Positions 26,994-36,879 of a stretch of 64,000 bases of DNA are shown here, in pieces. The notes under the pieces are model-generated. The model saw nothing but the letters and a program-made list of their open reading frames with translations. It ran no database searches and was not told where the DNA came from. The stretch's first letter is position 1, and the number at the start of each line of letters is the position of its first letter. Origin of the DNA: an uncultured Clostridia bacterium (lineage in GTDB: Bacteria; Bacillota; Clostridia; TANB77; CAG-508); assembly GCA_944386385.1 (NCBI GenBank), contig CALXAV010000005.1, positions 1,914 to 65,913 of the forward strand, given 5' to 3'. A program made the translations under genes and the position numbers.

Positions 26994-29900
26994 TTGAAAG
27001 TAAATAAGATATTAAAAATAGATGGAACACCACTAGATAAAACGCAGTTAGAAAATCATTTACAAAAAATTGCATCTTCACATAATTTAATAGGAAAATC
27101 AGCAAAAAATACTTATCCTGTACCACATTTATTAGAAAGTTTTAAAGTAATACAAGAAGTTTATAATTTATTAAATGAACATCTAAAATTAGGTATAAGT
27201 ATACACCCAGCTGGAGAATGGCTTTTAGATAATTTATATGTTATTGAAGAATGTGTGAAACAAATTGAGAAAGAACTAACTTTAAAGAGATATACAAGTT
27301 TTTTAGGGATTGCAAATGGTAAATATCAAGGTTTTGCAAGGATATATGTTTTAGCATCTGAAATAGTAGCTTATACAGATAATAGAATAGAAAGAAAAGA
27401 CTTAGAAAGCTATCTTGCAAGTTATCAAACTAAAAAGACACTAAGTATGGAAGAAATATGGAATATTGGAATGTTTCTTGAAATTGCAATAATCGAAAAT
27501 ATTAGAGAAGTTTGTGAAAAGATTTATATATCACAGATGGAAAAATATAAAGCAGAAAACATAGTAGAAAGATTAGTAGAAAATAAATCAAAACAGGAGC
27601 AAGTATTTAAAAATAATACTTTTAAAAAAGTAGAAAAAAATGTGTTAAATGATATGCAATATTCATTTGTGGAATATATGTCATATATATTAAAAAGATA
27701 TGGTAAAAAAGGGTATAGTTATTTAAAAGCATTAGAAGAAACAATTGAACTTACAGGAACAACTGTATCAGAAATAATAAAAAAAGAACATTTTGATATT
27801 GCTGTAAGAAAAGTATCAATAGGAAATAGTATTACAAGCATAAAAAAAATACAGAGAATCAATTTCCTAGAAATATTCGAGAAAATAAATGGAGTAGAAG
27901 AGTTATTAAAAAAAGACCCAAGTCATATATATGAAAAAATGGATAGTAAAACAAAAGAATATTATAGAAATAAGATAAAAGAAATATCTAAAAAAACAAA
28001 AATATCAGAGATATATATAACAAGGAAGTTACTAGAAATATCAAGTAAAAATGAAGGAAAAGGAAAGAAAAGCCATATAGGGTATTACTTAATAGATGAA
28101 GGAATAGAAGAATTATATAATATCTTAGGTTATAAAAAGAAAAGTTCTATTAACGTAAAAGAAAAAGTAAAAATCTATATTACTTTGGTATTAGTATTTA
28201 GTTTAGTACTTTCTTTTTATTTAGCAAATATGTTAAATAATAATATAAATAGTTGGGCTATATTAATAATTTCTTGGATGTTATTTTTTATACCAGCTTC
28301 GGAAATTGTAAATCAAGTAATATCATATGTATTAAGTAAAGTTGTTAAACCAAAGTTAATTCCTAAATTAGATTTTTCTAAAGGAATTGATAAAGAAAAT
28401 AGTACAATGGTAGTTATACCAACCATAGTAAACTCAAAAGAAAAAGTAAAAGAGTTAATTGAAAAATTAGAGGTATTTTACTTAGCTAATAAATCAGATA
28501 ATATATATTTTTGCTTACTTGGGGACTGTACTGAAAGTGACAAAAAAGAAGAAAGTTTTGATTTAGATGTGATAGAAGAAGGAAAAAAGGATATAGAAAT
28601 CTCAAATAGAAAATATGAAAGTAATAGCAAAATACCTATATTTAACTTTATATATAGAAAAAGAGAATGGAATGAAAAAGAAGGTTCATATCTAGGCTGG
28701 GAAAGAAAAAGGGGAATGCTATCTCAATTTAATGAATATTTGCTTGGAAATATAAGTAATCCATTTAGAGAAAATACAATTGAAAATTATGAAAACAGAG
28801 AAGAGATAAAAGAAGAATTAAAAAGTATTAAATATATAATAACATTAGATGCAGATACAGATTTAATATTAGACTCAGCTTTTGGACTAGTTGGTGCTAT
28901 GGCTCATATCTTAAATAGACCGGAAATTAATAAGAAAACAAATATTGTGACAGCAGGATATGGGATTATGCAACCAAGAGTAGGAATAAATTTAGAGGTA
29001 AGTAATTATAATCTATTTACAAAAATATTTGCAGGAGCAGGAGGAATAGACTCATATACAAATGCAATTTCAGATTTATATCAAGATAATTTTAAAGAAG
29101 GAATTTTCACAGGAAAAGGAATTTATGATTTAAAAGTATATTCTAAAGTATTAAAAGACCAGATACCTGAAAATACAGTTTTAAGCCATGATTTATTAGA
29201 AGGTTGTTATTTAAGGTGTGGACTGGTTTCGGATATAATGTTAATGGATGGGTATCCAACAAAATATAATAGTTTTATGAATAGATTATCTAGATGGATA
29301 AGAGGAGATGTTCAAATTGTAAAATGGATATCTTCGAAAAGACATCTAAATATATTATCTAGATATAAAATTTTAGATAATATAAGAAGAAGCTTATTAG
29401 AAATAAGTATAGTACTATCAGGAATTTTTACAATGATAATTGGAAAGATTTATAATAAAAGCGTTTATGCTATACTTATAGGATTACTTGTTGTTGCTAT
29501 AATTCCGTTTATATTAGAATTTTTAAATTATATAGTCTTTAAGAAAAATGGTGAGAAGAAGCAGAAAACATTTACACCCAAAATATCAGGAATAAAAGGT
29601 GGCTTGATAAGAGGAATATTAACTTTAGGATGTTTACCATATAAAGCATATATATCGTTAAAATCCATACTTACAAGCATATATAGAATTATTTTTAGTC
29701 ATAAACATTTATTAGAATGGACAACATCAGAGGAAGCGGAAAAACAAGCAAAGGAAGATTTATTTTCATATATAAGACAAATGATTGTGAATATTGTCTT
29801 AGGTTTTATTTGTATATTTAGTGGAAATATATTTGTAATTTGCCTTGGACTTTTATGGATAATGACACCTGTTTTTATGTGGTATATAAGTAGAAAGAAA

Positions 29901-32900
29901 AAAGAGGAGAAGAAGTTAGAAGAGTTAGATGTAGGAGAAAAAGAATATATAAAGGAAATAGGAAGAAGAACGTGGGAGTTCTTTAACACCTATTTAACTC
30001 AGGAAAATAATTATTTAATTACTGATAATTATCAAGAAGATAGGAAAGAAAAAATTGTTCCAAGAACTTCATCAACAAATATTGGGCTATCACTTCTTGC
30101 TGTAATTTCAGCAAATGACATTGGTTATATTGATAAAGAAAAAGCATTAGAATTATTAAGTAATATGTTATTAACAATAGAGAGTCTTCCAAAATGGAAT
30201 GGACATCTATATAATTGGTACCAAATCGAAACAAAAGAACCTTTAATACCAAGATATATATCAACTGTAGATAGTGGTAATTTTGTTGGCTATCTTTTTG
30301 TAGTTAAATCATTTTTGAAAGATATGTTAAATGAAGAAAAAGAGAAAAATCGAGAAACAGAAAAAAATGAGGATTTAAAAAATCTAATATCATTAGTGGA
30401 TAGATTAATAAAAAATACAGATTTCTCAGTATTATATAACAATGAATTACAAATATTTTCAATTGGATTTAATGTAGAAGAAAATAAGTTAACAGATTCA
30501 TATTATGATTTATTAGCATCAGAAGCAAGACAAGCAAGTCTTGTTGCAATTGCAAAAAAAGATGTACCATCAAAACATTGGAATAGTTTAAGTAGAACAA
30601 TGACAACTTTAGGAAAGTACAAAGGACTGGTTTCTTGGTCAGGTACAGCTTTTGAATATTTAATGCCAGATATAAATATACCTAGATACAAGGGAAGTCT
30701 TCTTGATGAATCTTGCAGGTTTATGATAATGAGCCAAAAAGAGTATAGTAAAAAATTAAATATACCTTGGGGAATTTCAGAAGCAGCTTTTAATGTAAAA
30801 GATTTAAAATCAAATTATCAATATAAAGCATTTGGAATACCATGGCTAGGACTTAAAAGAGGTTTAGCAGATGAACTAGTTGTATCTAGTTATGGAAGTA
30901 TTTTGGCAATTAATGATTGCCCGATAGAAGAAATTCAAAACTTAAAAAGATTAGAACAAGAAGGAATGTTCGAAAAGTTTGGATTTTATGAGTCAATAGA
31001 TTATACGCCAGAAAGGGTAGAAAAAGGAAAAACTTTAAGTATTGTAAAAACTTATATGGCACATCATCAAGGATTAATACTTCTTTCAATAAATAATTTA
31101 TTTAATAATAAAATACTTCAAAAGAGATTTATGGAAAATCCAGAAATAAAAGCAGTAAGTATATTATTACAAGAAACAATGCCAGAAACGGGAGTTATAA
31201 CTAAAGAAAAGAAAGAAAAAGTAGAAAAGTTAAAATATAAAGATTATGAAAATTATATAAAATTAGATTATAACAAAATAGATGAGAGGTTAATTACAGG
31301 AAATGTTATTTCAAATGAAGATTATGTTATAGCAATGAATCAAAAAGGAGAAGGTATAAGCAAGTATAAAGATATTTATATAAATAGATTCAAGCCGACA
31401 GATGATTATTCTCAAGGAATATTCTTTGTTATGAAAAATATAAAAACAAAAAGAATGTGGAGCTCTAATTATTTGTTTAATGACAAAAAAGAAAATTACA
31501 AAGTGAGTTTTATGCCAGATAAAAATGAACAAGAAATATTAGAGGGAAATATAAAAACAAAAATAAGAACAACAATTAGTTCAAATGAGCCAGTAGAATT
31601 GAGAAGGATAACATTAGAAAACCAAGGAAATGAAGAAGAAATAATAGAAGTAACAGTATATTTTGAACCTGTTTTATCAAAAAAAGAAGATGATTATGCA
31701 CACCCTGTATTTAATAATTTGTTTTTGAAAACTAAATATGATGAAGAAGTAAATAGTTTAATTATAAAAAGAAAGAAAAGAGAAAAGAATGCAAGAGAAA
31801 TGTATTTAATGACAGGGTTATCCACAAATTGTGAAACAATTGGGGATTTGGAGTATGAAATTAATGAGTCGAAGTTTATTGGAAGAGGAAATTTAGGAAT
31901 TCCGAACATGATACAAAATTCTATACCATTATCTAAGAAAATAGGTTTAGTGACTGAGCCGATTGTTGCTATGAAGAGAACTATTAAAGTAAAGCCACAA
32001 GATAAAGTTGACATTGATTTTATATTAAGTGTTGGAGAAGACGAAAAACAAGTAAAGCAAAATCTAGAAAAATATAAAATATATGAAAATGTGAAAAAAG
32101 AATTTGAGTTATCAAAAGCAAGAGTAGAAGCAGAAAGTAGATATTTAAGAGTAAAGGGAAAAGAAATTGCAATATACCAAAAAATATTGTCTTATATAAT
32201 TTTTGATAATCCAGTTAAATCAGAAAAATTAAAAAGAATAAATCCAGGAGAGTATAAACAAAGTAATCTTTGGAAATATGGAATATCAGGAGATTTACCA
32301 ATAATACTTGTTAAGATAAGAGACGTAAATGACGGGTATATTATAAAAGAGGTTTTAAAAGCATATGAATTTTTTAGAACGAAAAATGTAGATACCGAAA
32401 TTGTTATTTTAGATGAGGAAAGACATAGTTATGAAAATTATGTAAGAGAAGAAATAGAAAATGAGATATTAAATAGACATATGTCATATTTGAAAAATAT
32501 AAAAGGAGGAATTTTTACACTCGTAAAAGGAGAAGTAGATAAAAAGGATATATGTTTATTAGAATTAATTGCATGTGTTACTGTTGATGGAAGAAAAGGT
32601 GGATTAGAAAACAATATAAGAGACTTAGAAGAAGAGTATTTAGATAAATATAAGTTGGTCAATGAAAGTGAACAAAATGTAATAATGCAAGAGGATAATG
32701 ATGAAGATATAGATGTACTAAAAAATAGTGAAAGGCTAAAATACTACAATGAATATGGCGGATTTTCTGAAGACGGAAAAGAATATTTAATAAGAGTGAA
32801 TAAGGAAAATAGACTTCCAAGTGTTTGGTGTAATATCCTAGCAAATGAAAAATTTGGAACAGTTGTAACTGAAAATATGGGAGGATATAGTTGGTTTAAA

Positions 32901-35123
32901 AATAGTAAATTAAATAGAGTAACGGCTTGGGATAATAATCCAAGTTTAGATGTACCAAGTGAAATTATATATATGAAAGAGGAAAATGGAAAAGCATGGT
33001 CTTTAGGATTAAACCCAATGCCAGATAACAGAAACTATAATATTGTATATGGATTTGGATATGTAAAATATATACACAAAAGTTCTGGCATAGAGCAAGA
33101 AATAGAAACATTTGTGCCAAAAGAGGATGCATGTAAAGTGAGTATTTTGTGCTTAAAAAACACAACTCCAAATAAGAAGAAATTTAAATTATATTATTAT
33201 ATAAAACCAGTTCTTGGAGAAGATGAAATAAAAACAAATGGATATTTAAATGTAATTTTAGATGGAAATAATAATCTTGTATATGCTAAGAATTTATATA
33301 AAAGAGAAGAAGAAGATTATTTCATATATGTTTCTTGTAGCGAGAAAATAGAATCTTTTACAGGAGATAAAAACTCATTCTTAGGGGCAGGAGGACTTTC
33401 AAATCCACAAGGATTAAAAAAGGTAAGATTAAATAATGATTCTGGACTAGGTAAAAAGCCTTGTATGGCGTTTGTTGTTGAAGTAGAACTTGAAAGTTAT
33501 GCAAGTAAAGAGATATCTTTTCTCTTGGGAGCTGATGAAAGCTTAATTGATTGTAAAAATGTAGCTTATAAATATAGTAAATTAAATAATTGTAAACAAG
33601 AATTACAAATTACTAAAAATAATTGGAAAGATATTTTGGGAAGGTTACAAGTTTATACTCCTTTAGAGTCTACAAATATATTATTAAATGGTTGGATAAC
33701 ATATCAAACAATTGTAAGTAGACTTTTAGGAAGAAGCGGATATTATCAATCAGGAGGGGCGTTTGGATTTAGAGACCAACTTCAAGACACTTTAGGTTTA
33801 AAATATTTGGATACAAATATCATGAAAAATCAAATATTAAAACACAGTAGACATCAATTTTTAGAAGGAGATGTAGAACATTGGTGGCATGAAGAAACAA
33901 TGCGCGGTATCAGGACAAGATTTTCTGACGACTTACTATGGATTGCCTTTGTAACAATAGAGTATATTAAATTTACAGGAGATAGAAGTATATTAGATAT
34001 AGAAACGCCATATTTAAAGGGGGATGTATTACAAGAAGGACAAGATGAAAGATATGATAAATATATAGAGTCTGAAGAACAAGGAACTATATATAATCAT
34101 TGTATAAGAGCAATAGAGAAATCATTAAATTTTGGAGAAAATGGTCTTCCTAAAATTGGTTCTGGAGACTGGAATGATGGATTTAGTACTGTAGGTAATA
34201 AAGGTAAAGGTGAAAGTATTTGGCTTGGATTTTTCTTATATGATATTTTAGATAATTTTATTACTATATGTAATGAAAAAGGTGATGAAGAACTGGGAGA
34301 AAAATATGAAAAAATAAAACAAGAATTAAAAAAAGCATTAAATACAAAAGGTTGGGATGGAAGATGGTATAAAAGAGCATATATGGATGATGGAAATATA
34401 TTAGGTAGTATGGAAAATGAAGAATGTAGAATTGATAGTATTGCACAAAGTTGGGGTGTTATCTCAAATGCAGGTGATAATGATAAAAAATATATTTCTA
34501 TGGAAAGCTTAGAAAATCATTTAGTTGATAAGGAAAATGGAATTATTAAATTGTTAGACCCACCTTTTGAAAAAAGTAAATTAGAACCAGGTTATATAAA
34601 AGCATATCTACCAGGAGTAAGAGAAAACGGTGGACAATATACACATGCAGCGATATGGGTTATTATTGCAGAAAGCATGCTCGGTTTTGGAGATAAAGCA
34701 TTAGAGTTTTATAGAATGATTAATCCAATAGAACATTCAAGGACTAAAGATGCATGTAATAAATATAAAGTAGAACCATATGTTATAGCAGCAGATATTT
34801 ACGGACAAGGAAATCTTGTAGGACGTGGTGGTTGGACTTGGTATACAGGTTCTAGTAGTTGGTATTATAAAGCAGGGATCGAATATATTTTAGGATTAAG
34901 AATAGAAAATGGTTATATGACAATTGAACCTTGTATTCCAAAAGATTGGAAGGAATATCAAATACAATATAAATGGAAAGATAGTATTTATCATATTAAT
35001 GTTAAGAATCCAAATGGGAAGAATATGGGAGTTACTAAAGTACTTTTAGATAATAATGAAATAGAGAATAAAATAAAATTAGATGGTTCAAGAAAGATTT
35101 ATCATATAGAAGTGATATTATAA
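26994..35123 (+). CDS. Giant (2709 aa) cyclic beta-1,2-glucan synthase-like protein: membrane glycosyltransferase region plus GH94 glycosyl phosphorylase-like C-terminal region
   Basis: TTG start after AAGGAG and multiple TM segments. DADTD-type GT motif (IITLDADTD). C-terminal GH94-like stretches (GGAFGFRDQLQD, GDWNDG, GGQYTHAA) as in NdvB/Cgs and cellobiose/chitobiose phosphorylases. Confidence 0.8.
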   Translation: MKVNKILKIDGTPLDKTQLENHLQKIASSHNLIGKSAKNTYPVPHLLESFKVIQEVYNLLNEHLKLGISIHPAGEWLLDNLYVIEECVKQIEKELTLKRYTSFLGIANGKYQGFARIYVLASEIVAYTDNRIERKDLESYLASYQTKKTLSMEEIWNIGMFLEIAIIENIREVCEKIYISQMEKYKAENIVERLVENKSKQEQVFKNNTFKKVEKNVLNDMQYSFVEYMSYILKRYGKKGYSYLKALEETIELTGTTVSEIIKKEHFDIAVRKVSIGNSITSIKKIQRINFLEIFEKINGVEELLKKDPSHIYEKMDSKTKEYYRNKIKEISKKTKISEIYITRKLLEISSKNEGKGKKSHIGYYLIDEGIEELYNILGYKKKSSINVKEKVKIYITLVLVFSLVLSFYLANMLNNNINSWAILIISWMLFFIPASEIVNQVISYVLSKVVKPKLIPKLDFSKGIDKENSTMVVIPTIVNSKEKVKELIEKLEVFYLANKSDNIYFCLLGDCTESDKKEESFDLDVIEEGKKDIEISNRKYESNSKIPIFNFIYRKREWNEKEGSYLGWERKRGMLSQFNEYLLGNISNPFRENTIENYENREEIKEELKSIKYIITLDADTDLILDSAFGLVGAMAHILNRPEINKKTNIVTAGYGIMQPRVGINLEVSNYNLFTKIFAGAGGIDSYTNAISDLYQDNFKEGIFTGKGIYDLKVYSKVLKDQIPENTVLSHDLLEGCYLRCGLVSDIMLMDGYPTKYNSFMNRLSRWIRGDVQIVKWISSKRHLNILSRYKILDNIRRSLLEISIVLSGIFTMIIGKIYNKSVYAILIGLLVVAIIPFILEFLNYIVFKKNGEKKQKTFTPKISGIKGGLIRGILTLGCLPYKAYISLKSILTSIYRIIFSHKHLLEWTTSEEAEKQAKEDLFSYIRQMIVNIVLGFICIFSGNIFVICLGLLWIMTPVFMWYISRKKKEEKKLEELDVGEKEYIKEIGRRTWEFFNTYLTQENNYLITDNYQEDRKEKIVPRTSSTNIGLSLLAVISANDIGYIDKEKALELLSNMLLTIESLPKWNGHLYNWYQIETKEPLIPRYISTVDSGNFVGYLFVVKSFLKDMLNEEKEKNRETEKNEDLKNLISLVDRLIKNTDFSVLYNNELQIFSIGFNVEENKLTDSYYDLLASEARQASLVAIAKKDVPSKHWNSLSRTMTTLGKYKGLVSWSGTAFEYLMPDINIPRYKGSLLDESCRFMIMSQKEYSKKLNIPWGISEAAFNVKDLKSNYQYKAFGIPWLGLKRGLADELVVSSYGSILAINDCPIEEIQNLKRLEQEGMFEKFGFYESIDYTPERVEKGKTLSIVKTYMAHHQGLILLSINNLFNNKILQKRFMENPEIKAVSILLQETMPETGVITKEKKEKVEKLKYKDYENYIKLDYNKIDERLITGNVISNEDYVIAMNQKGEGISKYKDIYINRFKPTDDYSQGIFFVMKNIKTKRMWSSNYLFNDKKENYKVSFMPDKNEQEILEGNIKTKIRTTISSNEPVELRRITLENQGNEEEIIEVTVYFEPVLSKKEDDYAHPVFNNLFLKTKYDEEVNSLIIKRKKREKNAREMYLMTGLSTNCETIGDLEYEINESKFIGRGNLGIPNMIQNSIPLSKKIGLVTEPIVAMKRTIKVKPQDKVDIDFILSVGEDEKQVKQNLEKYKIYENVKKEFELSKARVEAESRYLRVKGKEIAIYQKILSYIIFDNPVKSEKLKRINPGEYKQSNLWKYGISGDLPIILVKIRDVNDGYIIKEVLKAYEFFRTKNVDTEIVILDEERHSYENYVREEIENEILNRHMSYLKNIKGGIFTLVKGEVDKKDICLLELIACVTVDGRKGGLENNIRDLEEEYLDKYKLVNESEQNVIMQEDNDEDIDVLKNSERLKYYNEYGGFSEDGKEYLIRVNKENRLPSVWCNILANEKFGTVVTENMGGYSWFKNSKLNRVTAWDNNPSLDVPSEIIYMKEENGKAWSLGLNPMPDNRNYNIVYGFGYVKYIHKSSGIEQEIETFVPKEDACKVSILCLKNTTPNKKKFKLYYYIKPVLGEDEIKTNGYLNVILDGNNNLVYAKNLYKREEEDYFIYVSCSEKIESFTGDKNSFLGAGGLSNPQGLKKVRLNNDSGLGKKPCMAFVVEVELESYASKEISFLLGADESLIDCKNVAYKYSKLNNCKQELQITKNNWKDILGRLQVYTPLESTNILLNGWITYQTIVSRLLGRSGYYQSGGAFGFRDQLQDTLGLKYLDTNIMKNQILKHSRHQFLEGDVEHWWHEETMRGIRTRFSDDLLWIAFVTIEYIKFTGDRSILDIETPYLKGDVLQEGQDERYDKYIESEEQGTIYNHCIRAIEKSLNFGENGLPKIGSGDWNDGFSTVGNKGKGESIWLGFFLYDILDNFITICNEKGDEELGEKYEKIKQELKKALNTKGWDGRWYKRAYMDDGNILGSMENEECRIDSIAQSWGVISNAGDNDKKYISMESLENHLVDKENGIIKLLDPPFEKSKLEPGYIKAYLPGVRENGGQYTHAAIWVIIAESMLGFGDKALEFYRMINPIEHSRTKDACNKYKVEPYVIAADIYGQGNLVGRGGWTWYTGSSSWYYKAGIEYILGLRIENGYMTIEPCIPKDWKEYQIQYKWKDSIYHINVKNPNGKNMGVTKVLLDNNEIENKIKLDGSRKIYHIEVIL

Positions 35124-35128
35124 TTTGC

Positions 35129-35157
35129 TTGATAATTCACATAAAAAGGAGTATAAT
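35129..35157 (+). promoter_or_regulatory. Near-consensus sigma-A promoter (TTGATA-17-TATAAT) directly upstream of the GC-rich island
   Basis: TTGATA at 35129-35134, a 17-nt spacer, TATAAT at 35152-35157. The GC-rich sequence begins ~8-10 nt downstream. Confidence 0.6.
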
Positions 35158-35164
35158 AAGAAGT

Positions 35165-35855
35165 ATAGCTACTTTGGTAGCTTGGCAGAAAAAGGTGCTT
35201 TAGAGAAAGGACGATGATGGAAGTACCTAATAGTGTTAGGCGGAGCAAGATTGCTCCCAAGTTCAAGTTCGACAATCCGACCAGGCGGAACCATCTGAGC
35301 AAGAAAGGTGTAAACGGTTGGGGCAACCAAAGGTTTACGAGCGATGATTGTCCGAAGGCCTTTAACGGAATCTTTATTCGTGAAGAAAAAGATTCCGAAG
35401 ATGAGACCGTGACTCATCCCTCGTACCTAATAGTCGCGTCCACAAAACCGTGGGTGCCTTTTGGCCTACGAGGCTGGAATGCTTGTGATGAGCTTGACCT
35501 CATGACGAGGAAGCTCTGGATACAGGAGCATCTCAGCGTCAGATGCGCAAGGGAGGAGGACCTTAAAGGACTGAAGGTGCCCAAAGGAAAGTTCTGGCTT
35601 GCAGAAACTTCCTTTGACATCGACGAGAACGGCGCCCACTTCGGTATGAAGTACGTCGACGATGGAGTAGTCAAGCTAGCCGAACTATGTCGTGTTCATG
35701 GTTCGGAAGCTGTTGAGACCGAAGGAGACGTCGGTGCTGGACTTCTGGCAGTGGTGACCCTTGATACAATCGTCATCAACGACTTAAAAGTACCGTCGTT
35801 GTGGGGCTAAGATCCACTAAGGCACTTTTTTGTGGGAGCTCCGTTGGGGCTCCCT
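35165..35855 (+). ncRNA. Candidate large (~690 nt) highly structured RNA of unassigned class, possibly dual-function
   Basis: ~50% GC body in a ~27% GC genome, coinciding with a promoter-to-3'-hairpin unit. It has at least 14 local hairpins, including 10-bp perfect, 10-bp with U.G, and 13/15-bp stems, plus a possible 15-bp closing helix 35189-35203/35817-35831 with two G.U pairs. See findings. Confidence 0.5.
35214..35810 (+). CDS. Alternative reading of the island: 198-aa ORF of unknown function with foreign (GC3 ~55%) codon usage
   Basis: The frame is open 35181-35810. By manual count, ~27 stop trinucleotides all fall out of frame. First-position G is ~37% and third-position A ~16%. The SD (AAAGGA) is only 2-5 nt from the ATG pair. 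No family recognised. Confidence 0.4.
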   Translation: MMEVPNSVRRSKIAPKFKFDNPTRRNHLSKKGVNGWGNQRFTSDDCPKAFNGIFIREEKDSEDETVTHPSYLIVASTKPWVPFGLRGWNACDELDLMTRKLWIQEHLSVRCAREEDLKGLKVPKGKFWLAETSFDIDENGAHFGMKYVDDGVVKLAELCRVHGSEAVETEGDVGAGLLAVVTLDTIVINDLKVPSLWG

Positions 35856-35883
35856 ACTTAATTTAAAAAAGGAAAGGTTAATT

Positions 35884-36879
35884 ATGAAAAGTAGAGATAT
35901 AAACCAACTATTAGATGGGCTGAGAAAAAATATGTTGGAATTTTCAGGTACAGAAGAAGATAAAGAAATAAAAATGGCATTATATGTAGCTATAGAGCTT
36001 GCTAAAAGTAAATCGTTTGATGAAAGATATTATCTTGGGAGTGACCAATTAGCAAAAAGAATAGTAAAACAAGCAAGAGAAGATAGTAAAAGTGAAAATT
36101 TCGAAAGAACATTAAACAAAAGAAAGCTTATATGCATTTCTATAGCAAATACATATAAAAGAATATTAAATAACCTATGTATAGATTGTGAAGTATTTAG
36201 AGTGATGAATTCGGACCATTTATATAATATTGTAACATTAAGTAATGGAAGAAAAATATGTGTTGACGTGCAAGAGGATTTATACCGTATTCATACTGGA
36301 AGAACATTAAATCATTTTTATGCATTGGGAGAAATAGACTTTTTACCAGATGACAGACTAATACCCATGCTGGTAGAATTAGGTTATACTAAAGATAAAG
36401 ATAGTTATAATGATAGAGATAATAAAATAGAAGCTGTTAGACAGAAAGTAGCAGACCTTACGCCTGATGAGGCTTTAGATGTTATATTTAGTTCTGATGA
36501 GCTTTTCCAAGGACTAGAAGAACTGGAAACTTCAGAAGCATACAGTTATTATTATGCTTTAAGGAGAGATACATTAGATAGAAAGAGATTCAAAAGAACA
36601 TATCAATTCCCATGTGCTAGATTAGACGATAATGGTGAACCTAAAGATTTCACCTTTTGTATATATGCAGATACATATGATTATAGAACAGTAAAACCAT
36701 ACTTATACTCTGAAAAAGAAGGTAGAATAATGCTATGTGATTTAATAACACTGGATAAATTACAAGATGATGGATTAAAATTAGGAAGATTAGGAGTAGA
36801 AACTAGGATTAGAAAGCTAAGAAGATACATGAAGCAAGCAGTAAAGGCAGGTAAGAGAAGAGAGGAAGAAACAAGATAA
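35884..36879 (+). CDS. Hypothetical protein, possible transglutaminase-like (Cys-His-Asp) fold
   Basis: RBS GGAAAGG before the ATG at 35884 (the track start at 35830 lies inside the island hairpin). Ordered C (LICISIANTY), H (SDHLYNIV) and D (ICVDVQED) resemble the TGase-like core. Weak call. Confidence 0.6.
   Translation: MKSRDINQLLDGLRKNMLEFSGTEEDKEIKMALYVAIELAKSKSFDERYYLGSDQLAKRIVKQAREDSKSENFERTLNKRKLICISIANTYKRILNNLCIDCEVFRVMNSDHLYNIVTLSNGRKICVDVQEDLYRIHTGRTLNHFYALGEIDFLPDDRLIPMLVELGYTKDKDSYNDRDNKIEAVRQKVADLTPDEALDVIFSSDELFQGLEELETSEAYSYYYALRRDTLDRKRFKRTYQFPCARLDDNGEPKDFTFCIYADTYDYRTVKPYLYSEKEGRIMLCDLITLDKLQDDGLKLGRLGVETRIRKLRRYMKQAVKAGKRREEETR

Follow-up and report, generated by a model that had tools for sequence, protein, structure and literature searches.

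A hairpin-dense, G+C-rich island in a Clostridia genome as a conserved protein-coding mRNA with a predicted 5' UTR/3' UTR closing helix

Is the short, hairpin-rich island that interrupts an otherwise A+T-rich stretch of Clostridia DNA a large structured noncoding RNA, or is it a gene? The window analyzed here is the whole 64,000-nucleotide stretch of contig CALXAV010000005.1 (assembly GCA_944386385.1), which derives from an uncultured Clostridia bacterium. Positions 35167-35854 form an island of 50% G+C, while the remaining window has 21-32%, and the island accounts for the only kilobase of the window with elevated G+C content (0.42 vs 0.21-0.32). A preliminary description, made from the sequence letters, had noted an exceptional density of hairpins in this island, assigned them to a plus-strand RNA, and pointed to a possible helix enclosing the whole body.

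We found every stem listed in that description at its place in the sequence. An unbiased count of perfect Watson-Crick stems (at least 6 bp, loops of 3-30 nt) across the 688 nt of 35167-35854 yielded 12, compared with 3.59 +/- 1.90 in dinucleotide-preserving shuffles, and 0 of 1000 shuffles reached 12. The hairpin density is thus exceptional, as claimed; the accompanying chance expectation of about 2 stems was slightly low, but the excess is genuine. A stem of 10 bp was present in 1.6% of the dinucleotide shuffles.

Folding of the whole 706-nt transcript likewise gave a minimum free energy (MFE) of -259.3 kcal/mol, against -216.8 +/- 8.9 kcal/mol for dinucleotide shuffles (z = -4.8). The minus strand, at -235.9 kcal/mol, also beats its own shuffles (z = -5.4), so the z-score cannot pick a strand. 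Absolute energy (-259 vs -236), G.U pairs, the promoter and the terminator point to the plus strand. The proposal of a plus-strand RNA therefore stands in that its structure lies far above chance and these other features agree with it, while the z-score is strand-neutral.

The island is filled by an open reading frame (35214/35217-35810), here called gene X, and the internal stems of the preliminary description fall inside its coding sequence (Table 1). One close relative of the product was identified (P0001, 90% identical); it occurs on nine metagenomic contigs, gene order being unchanged. Aligned to locus L001, gene X shows zero indels across 594 nt, and its differences are distributed over codon positions 1/2/3 as 19/6/53. 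Forty-five codon differences are synonymous and 21 are non-synonymous; the resulting dN/dS of 0.09 lies within the range of four neighboring genes in the same comparison (0.03-0.11). Gaps in the DNA alignment of the coding sequence are multiples of three, and homologues at 33-90% amino-acid identity hold the frame from end to end – including where amino-acid identity has dropped to 33% and nucleotide identity to 47-60%. An AGARAGGA Shine-Dalgarno sequence precedes the ATG by 5-9 nt in 11 of 11 homologous loci. Two minus-strand ORFs of 82 and 86 aa were considered as well and ruled out, the substitution periodicity fitting the plus-strand frame only.

Strong purifying selection on this conserved ORF makes the RNA an mRNA. 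We regard it as almost certain that the island is protein coding, and the view of its body as a structured RNA instead of a gene does not survive the substitution pattern (19/6/53; dN/dS 0.09). The start codon can also be refined. Tandem in-frame ATGs occupy 35214-35219, the first of which is ACG in the closest relative and missing from the other relatives. Because ATG 35214 is not conserved, the conserved start is 35217, and the annotation should use it.

Table 1. Features of the gene X locus and of its neighbors. Positions refer to the window except where a locus handle is given.
Feature	Position	Strand	Remarks
2709-aa ORF	26994-35123	+	Glycoamylase, GH94_b-supersandwich and Glyco_hydro_94 domains
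Sigma-A-type promoter, TTGATA-17 nt-TATAAT	35129-35157	+	11/12 consensus matches
5'-proximal hairpin, AGCUAC-UUUG-GUAGCU	35167-35182	+	a few nt from the predicted 5' end
Closing helix, 5' arm, AAAAAGGUGCUUUAG	35189-35203	+	ends right at the Shine-Dalgarno sequence
Shine-Dalgarno region, AGAAAGGACG	35204-35213	+	AGARAGGA kept in all loci
Coding sequence of X, 197-residue protein of an uncharacterized family	35217-35810	+	codon bias, dN/dS, homologues, AlphaFold; GC 50%, GC3 0.56
Closing helix, 3' arm, CUAAGGCACUUUUUU	35817-35831	+	6 nt past the stop codon
Intrinsic-terminator-like hairpin, GGGAGCUCC-GUU-GGGGCUCCC, with U-containing tail	35834-35864	+	hairpin 35834-35854
331-aa neighbor gene	35884-36879	+	just downstream of X
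Tandem paralogues of the 331-aa type	L012 4768-6751; L014 4745-6732; L016 4696-6670; L011 3007-4993		

Gene X appears to carry its own signals for transcription. A promoter of the form TTGayA-17-TATAAT stands at equal distance in 11 of 11 homologous loci, and in the window transcription is predicted to start at about 35162-35165. Folding the 5' ends locus by locus, because the MAFFT alignment is out of register there, we found a hairpin of 5-9 bp at the equivalent place in all 11 loci. Its stem sequences differ between lineages (AGCUAC/GUAGCU, UAUAGUC/GACUAUG, AUGGUCAC/GUGACUAU and GUAGCC/GGCUAU). The leader continues in these 11 loci with AAAGURCUUUAG, directly followed by the Shine-Dalgarno sequence. 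Beyond the stop codon, 10 of 11 loci carry the box CUAAAGYRCUUUU, and a G+C-rich terminator hairpin of the GGAGCUCC type shows compensatory changes across all 11 (RNAalifold columns 777-803, for example GC:7/AU:4 and CG:8/UA:2). The leader motif is not distinctive by itself: a scan of metagenome contigs with GTRCTTTAGAGARAGGA returned at least 120 loci, none of which encoded a member of the X family by tblastn, the pattern being too unspecific. Together, these signals suggest that the island is probably transcribed by itself, as a monocistronic unit of about 700 nt that runs from its own promoter to its own terminator, both ends being predicted.

The protein family to which X belongs is rare. 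Our search of 1.84 billion representatives returned only seven further credible relatives; a profile search identified five additional relatives, and synteny in Clostridia MAGs two more. The family amounts to approximately 13 clusters, and the relatives beyond P0001 are 197-219 residues long and align end to end at 33-50% identity. X had no sequence match in Pfam, PHROGs, PADLOC, NCBIfam or PDB. AlphaFold2 predicted a mainly beta fold (12 sequences; pLDDT 86.7, pTM 0.82), for which a Foldseek search of PDB and BFVD returned nothing at E<0.05, with TM-scores of at most 0.23. X probably encodes a conserved 197-residue cytoplasmic protein of unassigned function.

One match within X concerned P0008, a giant MBG_2-repeat (YGX-type) surface protein of 2644 aa with a Por secretion tail. 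Residues 126-195 of X matched it at E 6.7e-4 and 26% identity, which is too marginal for a domain name; the regions of P0008 that resemble X are residues ~1721-1787 and five other stretches. From this similarity, the C-terminal beta half of X may resemble an MBG-type domain.

Wherever the contig reaches that far, X precedes one or two uncharacterized genes of about 330 aa. Its surroundings usually comprise a gene for a 2700-aa GH94-family protein on the upstream side and HD-ruvA-ruvB on the downstream side. Because gene order is kept in the relatives, X is an old syntenic gene rather than a recent insertion. The 331-aa neighbor had no match in Pfam, NCBIfam, PHROGs, PADLOC or PDB, so that both X and its constant neighbor represent protein families without a match in these collections. 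Only five homologue clusters of the neighbor were found, and most relatives carry two tandem paralogues of it, compared with one in the window. Cys84, His112 and Asp128/Asp132 are invariant within it; in our own reading of the sequence, their order and spacing could correspond to a papain- or transglutaminase-like triad. Its AlphaFold model (pLDDT 76) had no significant PDB neighbor in Foldseek (nothing at E<0.05, TM-scores of at most 0.23) and only faint USP/UCH-like matches.

On the upstream side, the 2709-aa ORF resembles a cyclic beta-1,2-glucan synthase or phosphorylase and ends 6 nt ahead of the -35 box of the X promoter. A gene of this type stands before X in most loci, and other genes do so in L010 and L015. 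In L002 (875-1885) and L008, which are metagenomic copies of the close relative, the GH94 gene has lost its end and a gene for an IS-type DDE transposase (DDE_Tnp_1) stands there instead; these loci diverge from the window at approximately position 35110, about 20 nt upstream of the -35 box, and the X promoter and transcript are intact.

The element that best withstood comparison was the closing helix. In the window its arms (35189-35203 with 35817-35831) form 13 Watson-Crick and 2 G.U pairs, and the helix is part of both the MFE and the centroid structure. The preliminary description had called this helix only weakly significant on its own; in our comparison of 11 loci it is instead the best-supported element. 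RNAalifold recovered it de novo from the 11 full transcripts, along with the terminator. Across homologues, 89.1% of its alignment cells are paired – compared with 34-56% when one partner was slid – and 0 of 500 shuffles reached its covariation score. The central pair, 46/766, appears as AU:5, GC:3 and GU:1. Covariation of the helix is therefore present but limited, only two pairs showing double changes, and its support is mostly the conservation of two complementary boxes. G.U pairs occur within it at 43/769 (GU:4), 45/767 (UG:3) and 49/763 (UG:2); since these would be A.C on the other strand, they fit a plus-strand RNA only.

Energies gave a similar picture. The arm-to-arm duplex of the window has -22.8 kcal/mol, against -13.8 +/- 3.0 for shuffles, and the duplex beats its shuffles (p<=0.05) in 7 of 11 loci. 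In full-length folds, 12-16 UTR-UTR pairs spanning ~650 nt are part of the ensemble in 9 of 11 loci; the helix is absent or weak in the other two (L010 and L019).

The main helix abuts the Shine-Dalgarno sequence without covering it. The predicted probability that the latter is unpaired ranges from 0.02 to 0.98 across members, and because predicted accessibility varies in this way, occlusion of the type described for icaR does not seem general in the family. RNAalifold put forward a further helix, of 5 bp, in which the 3' flank of the Shine-Dalgarno sequence pairs with the coding sequence (35209-35213, GGACG, with 35349-35353, UGUCC, in codons 45-46); we do not rely on it. Its 3' side consists of Cys/Tyr-Pro codons, and all 11 of 11 sequences keep its G-C pairs unchanged; it may be a coincidence, as the invariant Pro codon fixes that side, and three sequences contradict the apparent C-G/U-A covariation.

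The structure extends into the coding region, which we compared with two kinds of shuffles – dinucleotide shuffles and synonymous-codon shuffles that preserve the protein and the gene's own codon usage. The window coding sequence has z = -5.2 against the former and -3.1 against the latter. Across the family, dinucleotide z-scores range from -2.4 to -5.2 (8 loci), compared with -0.8 to -2.0 for pieces of host genes, and synonymous-codon z-scores range from -1.2 to -5.7 (11 loci), compared with -0.54 on average and -2.0 at the lowest for 11 host-gene controls. In 9 of 11 members, 0 of 40 synonymous-codon shuffles were as stable as the real coding sequence, shuffle numbers being modest at 32-40 per gene. 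The coding region is thus shown to fold far more stably than its protein and codon usage require.

Composition at third codon positions is also distinct, with GC3 values of 0.56 in the window, 0.21-0.51 in the relatives and 0.13-0.19 in host genes. Given that members have drifted apart to 33% identity while staying at one fixed locus, and in A+T-rich genomes, the high G+C content must be maintained and is not a relic of import.

Individual internal stems are conserved to a lesser degree than the fold as a whole. Most are lineage-specific, while as a set they stand above slid controls. Stems S2, S4 and S10 are common to the window, L001, L011 and L010, and the hairpin at 35310-35338 is common to most members. 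The 11 internal stems of the preliminary description have 64.6% of their cells paired across homologues, compared with 39-43% after sliding, and 38 of their pairs show double-sided changes, compared with 19-27, a margin partly explained by the fact that the window sequence itself supplied the structure. A reduced dS, as a sign of RNA constraint, was not seen between the window and L001 (0.60 for X vs 0.39-0.54 for neighbors). Single synonymous sites of X thus show no visible freezing, and selection on folding, if it exists, must go along with turnover of single pairs.

How do other explanations fare against these observations? The one originally proposed – a structured noncoding RNA of about 690 nt, its ORF being a side effect of G+C content – would account for the hairpin excess (z about -5), the closing helix, the island's own promoter and terminator, and a G+C island in an A+T-rich genome such as rRNAs and large noncoding RNAs form. 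We consider it very improbable nonetheless, as substitutions follow codon positions at a low dN/dS, the frame outlasts nucleotide conservation down to 33% amino-acid identity, the Shine-Dalgarno sequence and ATG are conserved, and the AlphaFold model is confident; in addition, Rfam yielded no match and most internal stems are unconserved. Just as remote is a DNA-level role for the two boxes, which, as conserved 15-nt inverted repeats flanking the ORF, might be the terminal repeats of a small mobile cassette or paired operators, with no RNA helix involved. The G.U pairs seen across homologues would be mismatched in DNA and equally on the opposite strand; the repeats do not enclose the promoter, the locus is syntenic and not mobile, and X has no transposase-like domain.

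Two explanations that accept the gene deserve more weight, though both are unlikely. Recent import from a G+C-richer donor, with the hairpins as a by-product of composition or of donor sequence, fits the highly atypical GC3 (0.56 vs 0.15), the rarity of the family, and a bias among differences between the window and L001 (49 GC-to-AT vs 25 AT-to-GC) that looks like amelioration in L001. X nevertheless occupies a constant gene order on A+T-rich contigs in all relatives down to 33% identity. Such synteny makes X old at its locus, so its synonymous sites should have equilibrated. Moreover, none of the homologues recovered from the 1.8 billion representatives came from a G+C-rich organism, the window shows neither mobility genes nor a tRNA or direct repeats at the edges of the island, and shuffles that preserve composition and codon usage fail to reproduce the folding; we judge import to be quite unlikely. 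Somewhat less unlikely is an RNA of dual function, in which the messenger for the protein has a further role as an RNA, for instance as scaffold, as decoy or sponge, or as a long-lived RNA kept in store. Family-wide selection on folding and G+C content would then be due to that further role. This explanation draws on the closed-loop architecture, folding beyond the needs of the protein in 9 of 11 members, and GC3 of up to 0.56 held in hosts with GC3 of ~0.15. Against it, we saw neither an unpaired motif conserved among members nor an internal helix common to the family, as a binding site would have, dS is not reduced, and mRNA stability alone accounts for the same data.

Our preferred reading, to which we assign a probability of roughly 70%, is that gene X is expressed from a closed-loop mRNA, selected for its structure, that resembles the hbs and icaR mRNAs most closely and is organized for stability or translational control. 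As to purpose in particular, our analysis leans towards stability or translational control. [quoted passage not shown] With its 5' hairpin, end-to-end helix and compact, G+C-rich body, such an mRNA could resist the Firmicutes RNases Y and J – that is, single-strand-specific and 5'-end-dependent RNases. These features may also tune ribosome access or initiation at the adjacent Shine-Dalgarno sequence. That selection acts on the RNA as much as on the protein, keeping a closed-loop, globally folded and G+C-enriched transcript in genomes with GC3 of ~0.15 either as an exceptionally long-lived or stored mRNA or for a second, bifunctional role at the RNA level, is conceivable but doubtful; if true, gene X would provide a natural bacterial case of structure optimization across a whole coding sequence coupled to pairing of the 5' and 3' ends.

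Several implications follow from the locus. For annotation, a hairpin-dense, G+C-rich island with its own promoter and terminator resembles a new large noncoding RNA and yet is a gene, and a codon-position test with a single 90%-identical relative decides between the two. [quoted passage not shown] Its synonymous codons, moreover, appear to be under selection for folding that works against a very strong mutational pull towards A+T. The X mRNA could thus serve as a clean natural test system for how compaction and end pairing affect RNase Y/J decay and translation in Clostridia.

The X mRNA shares with the large structured noncoding RNAs of Firmicutes OLE, GOLLD, ROOL, HEARO and raiA a length of several hundred nucleotides, a high hairpin density, and a G+C-rich island with its own promoter and terminator in an A+T-rich genome; unlike theirs, its body is a translated-type ORF under purifying selection. 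Rfam 15 gave no match anywhere in the window at gathering thresholds. Relaxing the cutoff to E<=10 brought up nothing beyond miRNA and snoRNA matches at chance level. In Gram-positive bacteria, 5'-terminal stabilizer stem-loops, of which the leaders of ermC and aprE are examples, are known to impede RNase J in its decay of mRNAs from the 5' end. The X hairpin likewise lies a few nucleotides from the predicted 5' end, although it forms part of a larger closed architecture and its role is putative.

In Staphylococcus aureus icaR, a UCCCCUG motif in the 3' UTR pairs with the Shine-Dalgarno region, blocks initiation and makes the mRNA a substrate for RNase III (Ruiz de los Mozos et al. 2013, PMC3868564). 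L014, L020 and, in part, the window have a short 3'-side stretch complementary to the Shine-Dalgarno sequence. The main X helix, however, is placed upstream of the Shine-Dalgarno sequence and leaves it uncovered, the accessibility of that sequence is predicted to be variable among members, and the 3' UTR is very short (~45 nt vs >300 nt). [quoted passage not shown] The encoded proteins are unrelated, hbs encoding HU, and the X mRNA differs further in a coding sequence that is itself G+C-enriched and folded far past expectation, and in a separate hairpin at its very 5' end. Like hbs, it would be a short monocistronic Firmicute mRNA whose 5' UTR is structured, with a predicted helix of ~14 bp joining its 5' and 3' UTRs, a strong Shine-Dalgarno sequence beside that helix, and a terminator of its own.
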